A stretch of DNA of 64,000 nucleotides from an uncultured Candidatus Woesearchaeota archaeon (GCA_963724455.1 CAVRUV010000024.1:19-64018), one strand, 5' to 3'. Counted from the stretch's first letter, positions 24,058 through 32,869 are shown. The notes: generated by a model not told the origin, from the sequence alone. Made by a program: numbers and translations.

Positions 24058-24636
24058 TTAGTAATCCAATCCTTTTACTGCAACAGTACCTTGGTCGTAT
24101 GGATGCTTTATCTTTTTCATTTCCGTGATAAGATCGCATAATGGCACCAGTTCTTCAGGCGTGCTGCGTCCTGTGACCACAACATGTATGTCTTTTGTTC
24201 TTGCTTCTTCTAGGATTGCTTGCGCATCTTCTACATCCAAGAGGCCGAATTCTACTGCATATAACAGTTCATCAAGAACTAGTAAGAATGGAGTTTCTTC
24301 CATAAAATGCCTTGCTTTGACAAGTCCTTTTTGCGCATTCTCTATATCTTTAGCGTCCATGTTTTGTATATGGCCGAATTTGAGCTTTTTTTGGGCCTGT
24401 ATAAGTGTGATCTTGTTGAAGTCTTTTCCAGCAAAGACAAAATCATCATCTCCAGCCTGGTAAATTTTGATATCAAATTTGTCTTTTATAGCAGTAAGGA
24501 ACGAGACTTCGCTCGTATTCCAGTGTTTCATAAAAAATACTACGCGAACGCTTTTTTTGTGTCCGAGCGCGCGAACTATGGTGCCAAGAGCGCTGCTAGT
24601 TTTTCCTTTTGTACTTCCGCAAAAATTGATGATCAT
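24058..24636 (-). CDS. cobA: cob(I)yrinic acid a,c-diamide / cob(I)alamin adenosyltransferase (CobA/BtuR type)
   Basis: P-loop CGSTKGKTSSALG. VLDELLYAVEFGLLDVEDAQAILEEARTKDIHVVVTGR and the C-terminal MKKIKHPYDQGTVAVKGLDY are typical of CobA/CobO. Confidence 0.75.
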   Translation of the reverse strand: MIINFCGSTKGKTSSALGTIVRALGHKKSVRVVFFMKHWNTSEVSFLTAIKDKFDIKIYQAGDDDFVFAGKDFNKITLIQAQKKLKFGHIQNMDAKDIENAQKGLVKARHFMEETPFLLVLDELLYAVEFGLLDVEDAQAILEEARTKDIHVVVTGRSTPEELVPLCDLITEMKKIKHPYDQGTVAVKGLDY

Positions 24637-24697
24637 GGTTTCATCTCACTATTTTTTATTATGTTGAGTTATGTGTGTTTATGTTTTAGTTATTTTT

Positions 24698-29362: not shown

Positions 29363-32300
29363 CTAACTGCAACCAGTTGTTGTTCCGCAATCTAAGCACA
29401 CTGAACAACTACCATTTTGTTTTACTTTCATGCTAGCGCATTGGCTACAGCTTTCTCCAGTATATCCTTGCTGTTTTGCATTGCTGATTATAGTCGATCT
29501 TGTATCAACTTTTTTCGCTGTCGTTTGAGCAGAGGGTATTGTGTGCGAATTGTTTGTATCTTGTGCAGAATTGTGCACAACATCATGCGCAACCGAGGTG
29601 TTGGCATTTTTTGCGCGAACACTTACGTTTAACGTAGTCTGATTTTTTGGTTTTGTTTTCACATGAACAAGATCATCACGATCAAGGTATTCATGACCTA
29701 GCACTCTGAATATATAATCAAGTACTGATGTCGCTTGCTTTATGTGATGGTCTCCAGTGACTACTCCAGCTGGCTCGAATCTTGTGAATGTGAATTTCTC
29801 CACATACTCTTCAAGAGGCACGCCATATTGAAGACCAAGACTGACTGAAGTTGCAAAGCCATTCATGAGGCTACGAAATGCTACTCCTTCCTTGTACATC
29901 TCAACGTGCAATTCTCCTAGTGCACCATCTTCGTATTCACCAGTTTTGATGACTACACGATGTCCACCAACGTCAGCTTCCTGAGTAAATCCTGCACGAC
30001 GTGCTGGCATTTTGTTGTGGGCTGCAGCTGCAGCAAGAGCTTCTTGCACAACTTCTGGCGTTACTGTCTCGTCGATATCATCGTTGCTTTCAAGCTTTAG
30101 CAATTCAGCATCAAGATCGTTTGTCGTAGAGTTTAGCGGCTGGCTTAGTTTGCATCCATCACGGTAGAGCGCAACAGCCTTTACCATTAGTTTCCATGAT
30201 AGCGTGTATGCATTGCTGATATCAGTTATTGTTGCTTCTTTAGACATGTTGATTGTCTTGCTAATTGCGCCCGAAATGAAAGGTTGCACTGCAGACATCA
30301 TCTTGATGTGAGCTTCATACGCAATATATCTTGTTCCGTATCGACCACACTTGTTTGCACAATCAAAAATCGAATAATACTCTTTTTCTAGGTGCGGAGC
30401 TCCTTCAATAGTCATGCGTCCACAAACATAATCGTTAGCTTCAGAAATATCTTCTCTGTTAAAGCCGAGTGCTTCAAGTACATTGAGTTGTGGATCATTG
30501 ACTTGTTCATCGGAAAGTCCGATATTCTTTAGCACATCTTGGCCTAATGCATATGAATTGATCGCAAAATTAAGTTGGAATGCTGTTGGCAATTGTGTTT
30601 CTATTGCATTAATTTTTTCTTGCGGAATTCCTTTTGCTATCAATGTTTCATGATTGATTGCGGGTGCGTTCTTTAATGTACCATGACCAATTGCATATTC
30701 TACGATATCCTTTATTTGCGCATCATTGTATTTTAGATTCTTCAATGCAAGCGGAACACTGCTGTTTACAATTTTTAGATAACCGCCGCCTGCAAGTTTT
30801 TTGTATTTTACGAGTGCAAAATCTGGTTCAACTCCAGTAGTATCGCAGTCCATAACTAAACCGATAGTTCCCGTCGGAGCAATTACTGTGACTTGAGCAT
30901 TACGATAGCCGTATTTTTCTCCGTAATCTAGGGCACGATCCCAGCATTCTTTAGCTGCGTTAAGAAGTTGAGATGGACACAATTCTTGATTAATCGCTTG
31001 CGGCTTGATAGTGAGTCCGTCATATTCATTTTCTTTAGCGTGGTGCGCTGCACGCTTATGATTGCGTATAACTCGAAGCATTTCGTTCTTATTATTTTCA
31101 TAACGTTTGAATGGGCCGATGTGTGAAGCTATCTCAGCAGATGTTGCATATGCTTCTCCGCCCATGATTGCGCTAATTGCGCCAGCAATTGTTCTTGCTT
31201 TGTCGCTATCGTATGCAATACCTTGGCGCATCAGGATGGTTCCGAGGTTAGCATAACCAAGACCGAGCGTTCTATACTCGTAGCTTCGTTTTGCAATTTC
31301 CTTGCTTGGGAATTGCGCCATGAGTACGCTGATTTCGAGTACTGTTGTCCATATTCTGCAGACGTGCTTGAATCCATCAACATCAAATTCATTTTTGTTG
31401 TTTAGGAACTTTGATAAGTTTATGCTTGCAAGGTTGCACGCAGTATCATCTAAGAACATGTATTCAGAGCAAGGATTGCTCGCATTGATTCTGCCATCTT
31501 TTGGGCAGGTGTGCCATTCGTTGATTGTATCATCGTATTGCACGCCTGGATCAGCTGAAGCCCATGCTGCAAAACAGATTCTATCCCAAAGTGCGCGTGC
31601 TTGCAATGTCTTTGAAACTTTTCTATCTGTTCTATTGATTAATTCCCATTGCATGTTTTTTTCAAGAGCAAAGAAGAATCTGTTTGGAATGCGGATGCTG
31701 TTGTTGCTATTCTGTCCGCTCACTGTATTGTATGCATCACTCTCGAAATGCGTGTTGTATACTGGAAGCGAGATGTCGGTGATTCCCATTTTTGCAAGCT
31801 GCAATGTCTTGCTAATTGAAGCGAGTGGAACATTGAGACTCATTGCGTGTTTTATTGCGCCTCTGAGTTCATCATTTGTTGTAAGATCAAAATTCTTTGT
31901 TCTTTTTGCAATTTCAATAATTGGTTTTATTCCATCGTGAATTGATTTGCTACCTGCGACAAGGTCTGCAACTTTTTGTTCTTCTATCATTTTCCAGTCA
32001 ATGAATGATTCAATTTCTGGATGATCAAGGTCTAAACAAACCATCTTTGCTGCACGTCTGGTTGTACCGCCGCTCTTGACCGAGCCTGCTGCACAATCAT
32101 TAATTTTTAGAAATGACATGATTCCTGAACTTTTTCCTCCACCGGAGAGTGATTCGCCCGAACCACGTAAAGCTGAAAAATTTGTTCCTGTCCCTGAACC
32201 GTATTTGAAAATTCTTGCTTCTCTAGTTATCAGATCGAAGATGCCTCCTTCATTGACAAGATCGTCTCTAATACCTTGAATAAAACATGCGTGCGGTTGC

Positions 32301-32869
32301 GGTCTTGTATATGCATCAGCACTGAGTTTTAGTTCGCCGGTTATTGGATCGGCATACCAGTGTCCTTGCGCAGTACCTACGATGCCGTATTTATGTGCGA
32401 GACCAGTATTGAACCATTGCGGAGAATTTGGTGCTGCGATTTGATCTACTATAGTAAATGTGATTTCGTCTTCGAATGCTTGTGCATCTTCTTTGCTTGC
32501 AAAATAACCGAACTGTTCGCCCCAATGACGCCAACATCCACTCATGCGATTTGCAACTTGCCTAATGCTTGTTTCTCTACCTAGAATTTGTTTTCCTTCT
32601 TCATCTTTTAATGGGTGTCCGCTTATATCTGTTTGTGGGACTCCTGCTTTTCTAAAATATTTCTGCGCAAGGATATCGGTGGCGACCTGGCTCCAGAAAG
32701 TTGGGACTTCAATATCTTTTATTTCAAAGACTTTTGTACCATCAGGATTTTTTATTATAGAGAGTCTTTTTTCGTAATTGAATACTGCTAGAGGATCTTG
32801 ACCTGCCTTAGTATATCTTCTTTGAATCTTGAGTCCCTTGCCTGGGTTTGTTGCCACCATAATTACCAC
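29363..32869 (-). CDS. nrdJ: class II adenosylcobalamin-dependent ribonucleotide reductase, long form with a C-terminal Cys cluster
   Basis: 1168 aa. Motifs: [65 protein letters not shown]-terminal [28 protein letters not shown]. No ATP-cone. Confidence 0.85.

Follow-up and report, generated by a model that had tools for sequence, protein, structure and literature searches.

A conserved ATP-cone-bearing NrdJ paralog of Woesearchaeota that has departed from the canonical class II reductase active site, possibly a nucleotide sensor

Gene organization of the locus

The window, a stretch of 64,000 nucleotides from an uncultured Candidatus Woesearchaeota archaeon, contains two genes for class II ribonucleotide reductase (RNR) homologs, here called the short and the long NrdJ, together with a cobA-like gene and two intervening ORFs (Table 1). 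The ORFs and their coordinates agree with the earlier note on this DNA. Since homologs of the two intervening ORFs are absent from the corresponding loci of relatives, they are probably a lineage-specific insertion that lies outside the RNR system; searches against PHROGs and PADLOC gave nothing meaningful for either of them or for the short NrdJ. Rfam detected neither a cobalamin riboswitch nor any other element near the genes.

Table 1. Features of the nrdJ locus, in coordinates of the window
Feature	Position	Strand	Remarks
CobA-like ORF	24058-24636	-	3' of short nrdJ, one operon
Short ATP-cone NrdJ-like paralog	24698-26749	-	683 aa, tail-less
Finger loop and beta-F of short paralog	25562..25621	-	translation STSPCAEQPLLPNESAVEGS; S379, C381, E383, A392, E394
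Beta-A strand of short paralog	26147..26167	-	LSSCIVL with first redox Cys, C198
ATP-cone domain of short paralog	26459..26725	-	aa 9-97
Both inserted ORFs together	27142..29310	+	446 + 253 aa; opposite strand to the paralogs
Unknown ORF, first of two between the paralogs	27142-28482	+	
Unknown ORF, second of two between the paralogs	28549-29310	+	
Long cone-less canonical NrdJ	29363-32869	-	1168 aa
NrdR-box-like palindrome	32897..32910	n/a	CACTATCTGTAGTG; 28-41 bp 5' of long nrdJ start

The CobA-like protein carries a P-loop-like GSTKGKTS motif and scores 149.9 bits against PF02572, above the cut-off, and 124.5 bits against the equivalog TIGR00708, below the cut-off of 167.75. Operons of cone-bearing nrdJ and cobA are distributed across the order, with cobA conserved 3' of nrdJ also where the latter encodes a canonical NrdJ; the CobA link is therefore ancestral, and the short gene is a descendant of the order's ancestral nrdJ(ATP-cone)-cobA operon that now constitutes a distinct conserved subfamily. 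The earlier suggestion that the neighboring CobA activates salvaged cofactor finds support, since CobS and CbiB were looked for and not found, as would be consistent with cobalamin salvage, but because the linkage is ancestral and includes canonical NrdJ it is uninformative about the degenerate form in particular. CobA, presumably transcribed together with the short gene, would adenosylate salvaged cobalamin for the NrdJ proteins.

A perfect CACTAN4TAGTG palindrome 5' of the long nrdJ is the single clear, putative NrdR box in the window. Of 11 loci, 10 have a similar palindrome 5' of the gene for the catalytic partner and none has one 5' of the short gene; in three loci the palindromes are paired, 32-35 bp apart. 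The genome also encodes an NrdR-like protein of 163 aa with a Zn ribbon and an ATP-cone (G000:C28).

The long NrdJ and the partner reductases

The long NrdJ is a canonical class II reductase and the only fully equipped RNR in the 1.26-Mb genome. It combines Ribonuc_red_2_N, barrel and TSCPD domains without an ATP-cone, scores 1752.4 bits against NF005736 (PRK07562; cut-off 1737), and has the NPCSE finger loop, both redox cysteines, the PNSP loop and a Zn-finger/Cys tail (CSQC...CSVCLDC...GCS). It is the likely working reductase. Every examined genome with a degenerate copy likewise encodes a canonical class II RNR, usually adjacent to that copy and either a long NrdJ or a monomeric NrdJm. This partner is cone-less in four of the five partner situations and has a cone of its own in the remaining one, and its type was swapped twice from long NrdJ to NrdJm, which argues against an obligate heterodimer.

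The short and long NrdJ are only ~24% identical. A division of labor by phosphate specificity (PMC8365446) was rejected for the pair, since P-N-S-P is the loop type of the long form as well as of the short form's ancestors. As in Pseudomonas aeruginosa NrdJa/NrdJb (PMC4520616), two nrdJ-derived genes are adjacent and one is without the C-terminal cysteines; the P. aeruginosa proteins, however, are halves of one enzyme, and such a split arrangement was rejected here, where both genes encode complete barrels and one of them is canonical.

Domain architecture, fold and active-site residues of the short paralog

The short paralog consists of an ATP-cone, Ribonuc_red_lgN and a barrel, and belongs to the class II RNR family by its ten-stranded alpha/beta barrel with finger loop, its score against TIGR02504 (NrdJ_Z; 608.1 bits, cut-off 399.95) and its match to PF02867 (E 1e-113). 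Its AF2 model is confident (pLDDT 92.4) and has Thermotoga maritima NrdJ (1XJE) as best PDB match (Foldseek TM 0.82, E 2e-49). With this dimeric class II enzyme (NrdJd; 1XJE, 3O0O) it shares fold, domain order and 33% identity, while identity to canonical archaeal NrdJ is ~48%. That the 683-aa paralog bears the ATP-cone, as noted earlier, is borne out by PF03477 (74.2 bits against a cut-off of 25.8). Within the cone, K12, R13 and G15 do not vary among the 63 aligned sequences, canonical and degenerate alike, and the KRDG motif shows a single change in the clade of the short paralog, from D to S or T.

The finger loop aligns without gaps to 1XJE (phmmer against PDB), giving the equivalences C198 = C134, S379 = N320, C381 = C322 (the thiyl Cys), E383 = E324 and A392 = C333. 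The residue changes proposed in the earlier note could thus be placed on the T. maritima sequence and hold throughout: the first redox Cys, the thiyl Cys and the Glu are kept; the Asn before the thiyl Cys is replaced (NPC to SPC), so that the loop reads S-P-C-A-E in place of N-P-C-x-E; and the downstream redox Cys is lost (CNL to AVE), with Glu (E394) for the invariant Leu two residues on. Only one member of the T. maritima C134/C333 pair is therefore found, and with no Cys at 391 or 393 the remaining cysteines are 369, 541 and 660. Positions 379, 392 and 394 are N, C and L in 86/86 canonical relatives examined, so these departures are not alignment noise. Of 3347 class II sequences, 3175 have NPCxE, and differences in mechanism follow the finger-loop motif (PMC9669993).

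The substrate-binding loops have changed as well. The apical phosphate loop (181-184) reads P-A-S-A, which is neither P-N-S-P nor P-A-G-R, the NDP-type and NTP-type loops as defined in PMC8365446; N, S and P of the former are fully conserved in diphosphate-reducing NrdJ (PMC8365446), and N182 and P184 occur in 86/86 canonical relatives. In loop 2, Tyr takes the place of the Arg (T. maritima R208). Shared with the T. maritima enzyme are the phosphate-binding Ser183, the distal loop P531-T532-G533 and most loop-1 and loop-2 residues; overall, 166 of 202 canonical-invariant positions are retained. The C-terminus (...YRDGSLSTQVLTLGGTNN) is free of Cys and thus has neither a C-terminal Cys pair nor a zinc finger, and the absence of the tail, also claimed earlier, is evident because the protein stops at exactly the point where the T. 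maritima construct, crystallised without its tail, stops. A Cys-rich tail is required for physiological-type reduction (PMC5704485). In two genomes of the same order, G038 and G020 (79% complete), the only RNR found is a tail-less NrdJ with a canonical site, however, and the missing tail alone is therefore no proof of inactivity.

Distribution and conservation of the degenerate clades

The short paralog belongs to a clade (g1) of ~25 protein clusters, all tail-less, and a sister clade with the same synteny comprises 27 clusters. A free tree places the two degenerate clades apart, and an AU test does not reject their forming a single clade (p = 0.386). Searching genome contigs with the short protein retrieved bacterial canonical NrdJ only (Omnitrophota, Planctomycetia) and zero relatives, and no description of an NrdJ pseudoenzyme or paralog turned up in literature searches.

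Across ~40% sequence identity, the thiyl Cys and the Glu are kept in 52/52 clusters of the two clades. The subfamily also strictly keeps the ATP-cone, the phosphate-binding Ser and the distal loop, as well as most Gly and Arg residues of the specificity site, and has lost the Cys tail, the Asn of the P-N-S-P loop and the loop-2 Arg. Whether orthologs share the N-to-S and C-to-A changes, a check that the earlier note had proposed, has a divided answer: the catalytic Asn is replaced in 21/25 g1 clusters (usually by Ser or Gly) and in all sister-clade sequences, but both redox cysteines persist in the majority of g1 members. Independent losses in this clade number at least four for C198 and at least five for C392, against 0/86 in canonical relatives, and in the sister clade either Cys is found in 0/27. 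E394 is present in 24/25 and C369 in 22/25 g1 clusters; both are absent from the sister clade.

The degenerate subfamily is under purifying selection. The short ORF is intact in 9/9 genomes of the genus, and orthologous degenerate copies are present in sister genera. Synonymous sites are saturated in most pairs, and two short-gene pairs alone gave finite dN/dS values, 0.095 for a pair in which neither redox Cys is left and 0.22 for one of the sister clade. Compared with its closest ortholog, the short gene of the window has a dN of 0.229 (dS saturated), near the 0.216 of the long NrdJ and the 0.221 of CobA. Canonical NrdJ has identity peaks of 0.75-0.77, located in beta-A/loop 1, in loop 2 and in the finger loop; the same segments are flattened to 0.57-0.70 in both degenerate clades, where conservation of the cone, the N-domain and the C-terminal barrel equals or exceeds that in canonical NrdJ.

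Possible functions of the short NrdJ

We suggest that the short NrdJ is a selected paralog that has given up canonical reduction and kept its nucleotide-binding modules, with a role as sensor or regulator being the most likely one, a view that we hold tentatively. It would no longer run the canonical cycle, in which oxidation of the Cys pair is followed by re-reduction through the tail, but its cone, specificity site and former active site would all still bind nucleotides, and binding of AdoCbl is probably retained. Selection may have retained the protein as an accessory of deoxynucleotide supply that senses nucleotides (ATP/dATP, dNTP) and so gives an ATP-cone-based input where the catalytic RNR has none. 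The signal might be passed on by contact with the RNR, by cone-cone contacts with NrdR, or through buffering of AdoCbl or nucleotides. Of the three readings offered in the earlier note, a regulatory cone partner for the long enzyme is the direction best supported, given that each examined genome with a degenerate copy has a canonical RNR, nearly always one without a cone, and that the cone of the short form is as conserved as in canonical enzymes; the swaps of partner type, together with the one partner that bears a cone, make a specific heterodimer less likely.

Several features do not sit easily with a sensor. The invariance of the thiyl Cys and Glu exceeds what a pure pseudoenzyme would need, the G(I/C)T(V/I)YRD segment is kept, translational coupling to cobA persists, and the clade-specific E394 and C369 are predicted to lie near the active site; together these may point to radical chemistry that was either retained or newly acquired. 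Both redox cysteines in most of g1, and a tail-less canonical NrdJ as the only RNR elsewhere, likewise speak against it. Altered radical chemistry is the main rival, though we regard it as unlikely: an AdoCbl-dependent thiyl-radical catalysis other than disulfide-coupled reduction, for example redox-neutral or fed by an external donor without a Cys pair, with E394 and/or C369 as new active-site groups. Retention of Ser183 and the distal loop would suit such an enzyme, and the persistence of the short protein through replacement of its partner RNR suggests an autonomous function. Against it, E394 and C369 are missing from a sister clade of the same synteny, no conserved neighboring gene suggests a follow-on enzyme, and the active-site and loop segments appear relaxed in their conservation rather than shifted and tight. 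Moreover, an RNR site with the top-face Cys and Glu and without reducing cysteines generates an unstable 3'-keto-2'-deoxynucleotide, and self-inactivation would be expected.

A related alternative, which we consider quite improbable, is that the protein still reduces ribonucleotides and is regenerated in an unusual way, members with the Cys pair relying on the tail of the long NrdJ in trans or on a small thiol, and those with only C198 on a class III-like reductant such as formate. Formate-type class III RNRs work with one bottom-face Cys, and the short protein still has C198, so the different reductant proposed in the earlier note has some basis; it is unlikely clade-wide because relatives lacking both bottom-face cysteines are maintained by selection, at a dN/dS of ~0.1. 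In favor of continued reduction, NrdJ tails act between subunits and DTT reduces tail-less NrdJ directly (PMC5704485), most g1 members have both cysteines, and a tail-less canonical-site NrdJ is the only RNR found in some genomes of the order. However, reduction in trans would require hetero-oligomers of the weakly similar short and long proteins, or with the monomeric NrdJm, and a fully canonical RNR is always at hand. The replacement of the catalytic Asn in most of g1 and throughout the sister clade, the changes to the P-N-S-P Asn and loop-2 Arg, and the absence of both cysteines from that entire clade also speak against continued reduction. Least probable by far, and in our view to be dismissed, is decay, in which a pseudogenising duplicate would owe its retention solely to the expression of cobA from the same operon. 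The short gene does evolve faster (55-63% identity compared with 63-73% for the long NrdJ in the same genome pairs), and catalytic residues were lost repeatedly; yet it is not decaying, because its ORFs are intact throughout the genus, orthologs occur in sister genera, dN/dS is low and dN resembles that of the long NrdJ and CobA. Intact ORFs in ~52 clusters, the retained canonical-invariant positions, the confident predicted fold and the rise of new conserved residues in the clade further contradict a relic.

Comparison with known systems and implications

Yeast Rnr4, which derives from the beta (ferritin-like) side of RNR, is a paralog of the small subunit Rnr2 that lacks catalytic competence, and it forms an obligate heterodimer. 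The sensor or regulator reading recalls this case in that a conserved paralog of an RNR subunit has lost the residues for its own chemistry and would act as an accessory beside a working copy; it differs in that the short NrdJ is an alpha-type class II protein whose putative partner varies in type. An ATP/dATP-sensing cone placed off a cone-less catalytic subunit is also seen in the NrdB-fused cones of Leeuwenhoekiella blandensis (PMC5794259) and in NrdR (PMC9110341). In those cases the cone belongs to a radical-generating subunit or a DNA-binding repressor and the mechanisms are demonstrated, whereas the cone of the short NrdJ is carried by a whole NrdJ-like body that is probably unable to reduce and would act on a putative target. 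The only cone-bearing class II enzyme studied so far shows no activity regulation (PMC9669993).

Public records name the degenerate proteins 'adenosylcobalamin-dependent ribonucleoside-diphosphate reductase', and their scores exceed the NrdJ equivalog cut-off; the number of functional RNRs assigned to DPANN genomes is therefore probably too high. The clade further offers a natural series of active-site states, with both cysteines, one or none, which is useful for dissecting the thiyl Cys/Glu core alone. It is conceivable, if somewhat doubtful, that the ATP-cone NrdJ-like proteins of Woesearchaeota, with ~52 clusters in the two clades, represent an undescribed functional class. They would then be either the first trans-acting ATP-cone/nucleotide sensor of cone-less class II reductases or a new AdoCbl/thiyl-radical enzyme with nucleotides as substrates and no internal reductant. 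That a conserved NrdJ body with a cone has apparently given up canonical reduction, and always occurs beside a working, usually cone-less RNR, raises the question, approachable with two clonable proteins, of whether a class II system may be regulated in trans by a degenerate paralog. [quoted passage not shown]

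Active-site departures of the short NrdJ

In a phmmer comparison with the PDB, the finger loop of the short, ATP-cone-bearing NrdJ aligned to that of the T. maritima NrdJ without gaps, with C198, S379, C381 (the thiyl Cys), E383 and A392 equivalent to C134, N320, C322, E324 and C333, respectively, and its C-terminus coincides with the end of the crystallised, tail-less T. maritima construct. The residue losses described in the earlier note (the catalytic Asn, the downstream redox Cys and the C-terminal Cys tail) are therefore correct. Measured against 202 alignment columns that are at least 95% invariant in 86 canonical relatives, the protein keeps 166, and its 36 departures are concentrated in residues 182-276 (apical phosphate loop, beta-A, loop 1 and loop 2) and 379-394 (finger loop and beta-F). 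Changes not mentioned previously are P-A-S-A in place of P-N-S-P in the apical phosphate loop, where N, S and P are fully conserved among diphosphate-reducing NrdJ (PMC8365446), a loop-2 Arg replaced by Tyr, and an invariant Leu two residues past the lost Cys replaced by Glu. The long NrdJ has NPCSE, both redox cysteines, P-N-S-P and a Cys-rich tail.

The short protein combines an ATP-cone, the RNR all-alpha domain and the barrel, and scores above the cut-off of TIGR02504 (608 bits); it is a structurally intact NrdJ derivative (AF2 model with pLDDT 92.4; TM 0.82 to 1XJE). The long protein comprises Ribonuc_red_2_N, barrel and TSCPD domains and narrowly passes equivalog NF005736 (1752 bits vs 1737). 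Full-text literature searches turned up no account of NrdJ paralogs of this kind. Among class II sequences, Burnim et al. found NPCxE missing from 172 of 3347, left many Cys-less C-termini without explanation, and stated the role of the class II ATP-cones as unclear (PMC9669993).

Locus and genome context

Features of the nrdJ locus and neighboring archaeal markers
Feature	Position	Strand	Basis
CobA-like gene	24058-24636	-	ORF call
Short NrdJ, 683 aa	24698-26749	-	ORF call; Pfam, NCBIfam
Palindromic multi-helix element	26838-26984		
ORF without family match, 446 aa	27142-28482	+	ORF call; Pfam, NCBIfam
ORF without family match, 253 aa	28549-29310	+	ORF call; Pfam, NCBIfam
Long NrdJ, 1168 aa	29363-32869	-	ORF call; Pfam, NCBIfam
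CACTAN4TAGTG palindrome	32897-32910		
Archaeal SRP RNA	33873-34148		119.5 bits
Intron-containing tRNA, anticodon 'gt'	37744-37838		ARAGORN

The two opposite-strand ORFs are inserted between the nrdJ genes and have no homolog in the loci of relatives, several of which carry the long gene, the short gene and cobA co-directionally with short gaps. The ORFs gave no PHROG match and at most faint PADLOC matches; the larger contains an HEGPFGH stretch. Archaeal DNA extends from about 16 kb onward, marked as archaeal in origin by the SRP RNA and the intron-containing tRNA. Positions 1-15600 have a GC content of 0.50-0.58, against 0.28-0.41 elsewhere in the window, and encode bacterial-type genes (RhaT, an AraC-family regulator, GH2, dienelactone hydrolase, GFO/IDH/MocA); bacterial and archaeal DNA were probably joined near 15.6-16 kb to give a chimeric contig.

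The source genome (1.26 Mb, 45 contigs, 83% complete) holds the short and long NrdJ as its only RNR barrels, and neither a class III enzyme nor CobS or CbiB was found in it. The latter absence is consistent with cobalamin being salvaged whole and then adenosylated, in line with the salvage that the earlier note suggested from the adjacent CobA. The CobA linkage itself is uninformative about the short form: the pair of cone-bearing nrdJ and cobA occurs order-wide, also with fully canonical, tailed NrdJ, which makes CobA an ancestral companion and no clue to a new function.

On another contig, a 163-aa NrdR-like gene (Zn ribbon plus ATP-cone; G000:C28, locus L010, 1453-1944, minus strand) adjoins a dUTPase-like gene. 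The perfect palindrome upstream of long nrdJ is a putative NrdR box. Allowing at most one mismatch, such palindromes occur ahead of the gene for the catalytic partner in 10 of 11 loci, paired 32-35 bp apart in three, but ahead of the short gene in none of the 11. No NrdR box is present in the 392 bp preceding the window's short nrdJ, which contain the multi-helix element.

A conserved subfamily under selection

Searching 5.8 billion proteins with the short NrdJ returned 22 clusters at 54-74% identity, ordinary NrdJ falling to 50% or less; adding the window protein and two copies from the loci of relatives gives the clade g1, aligned as 25 sequences. No member has the C-terminal Cys tail, E394 is present in 24/25, and 22/25 share a new conserved Cys, C369. 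Of the two substitutions singled out in the earlier note, replacement of the catalytic Asn is widely shared (Ser or Gly in 21/25); the Cys-to-Ala change (A392) is a terminal loss, the Cys being still present in the window protein's three closest relatives. Independent losses in g1 number at least four for the first redox Cys and at least five for the second. A sister clade, 27 clusters in a database search, comprises proteins with the NCBI name Candidatus Woesearchaeota; here the tail, the Asn and both redox cysteines are gone. At the C-terminus of the family-f1 copies a new conserved motif, S(V/I)REELKxLxxNKSLxEF, has appeared. [quoted passage not shown] In the window's genus, each of the nine genomes has the gene. 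A cone-bearing NrdJ-like gene lies beside cobA in the sister genus (with long NrdJ nearby on the same contig where assembled), in two more genera of the family and in one genome of another family; these copies are of the sister-clade type, with the same losses. Judged by these sequences, the short NrdJ belongs to a conserved subfamily and is not an accident.

Further variants were seen among the relatives. Six ATP-cone proteins (P0055, P0063, P0064, P0098, P0121, P0122) with the finger loop ATDPCGDQ...ESAPLGA have Asn changed to Asp, Glu to Asp, no redox Cys and a distinct CxxC...CxxC C-terminus, and may be a separate degenerate lineage. P0082 and P0100, tail-less cone NrdJ with TNQCGEA (Pro to Gln), group with a canonical NrdJ of the same order. 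A related, 99%-complete genome encodes three tandem NrdJ plus cobA (L023, G038:C60:1-8000), with no further RNR detected; none of the three has C-terminal cysteines, the active site is fully canonical in two, and one is cone-less.

The possibility of decay, raised in the earlier note, is rejected by several measures. With synonymous sites saturated for most pairs, dN/dS values come from two short-gene pairs: 0.095 for g1 orthologs lacking both redox cysteines and 0.22 for one sister-clade pair. Against the closest ortholog, dN of the window's short gene (0.229) resembles that of long NrdJ (0.216) and CobA (0.221). The short form diverges somewhat faster than the long one in the same genome pairs (55-63% vs 63-73% identity). 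Regional identity in canonical NrdJ peaks at 0.75-0.77 in beta-A/loop 1, loop 2 and the finger loop; in both degenerate clades these segments reach 0.57-0.70, while conservation of the cone, N-domain and C-terminal barrel equals or exceeds that in canonical enzymes. Constraint has thus been relaxed specifically in the catalytic and allosteric-communication core.

Partners and possible functions

In every genome examined, a degenerate copy is accompanied by a canonical class II RNR. Most g1 genomes and the sister genus have the long NrdJ in this place, one g1 subclade and genus g3 have a monomeric NrdJ (NrdJm), g4 has a short NrdJ without a cone, and one genome of another family has a cone-bearing NrdJ. 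All partners retain N-P-C-x-E and the downstream Cys, and all have a Cys-containing tail bar one, which runs off its contig. In two members of the genus, the long NrdJ orthologs (L003, 3240-7781; L020, 1546-5967) reach 1473-1513 aa. Intein and LAGLIDADG matches are on record for the one in L003, and the one in L020 carries an insertion of about 350 residues; the window copy has no insert of this sort.

In the RNR cycle the Cys pair supplies electrons, the ribose hydroxyls are positioned and deprotonated by Asn and Glu, and re-reduction of the site falls to the tail. The short NrdJ lacks several of these residues, and its relatives do without either reducing Cys; canonical turnover by the clade as a whole is therefore very unlikely. 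That this particular protein is still an active reductase with an unusual reductant seems improbable; it would use C198 alone in a formate-like manner, or be re-reduced by another subunit, since NrdJ tails can act in trans (PMC5704485). Altered AdoCbl/thiyl-radical chemistry is the main rival: the retention of the thiyl Cys and Glu in 52/52 clusters of both clades is striking, and E394 and C369 are new conserved residues. We regard it as rather unlikely.

We tentatively favor, at somewhat under even odds, a non-reducing accessory or sensor, which would rely on the cone and specificity site that the protein has kept and on what was once its catalytic pocket. The exchange of partner types speaks against an obligate heterodimer and favors a function that does not depend on the partner; here the regulatory model is at its weakest. 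The short NrdJ is no new category of protein: it derives from an RNR and is probably a pseudo- or neo-enzyme.
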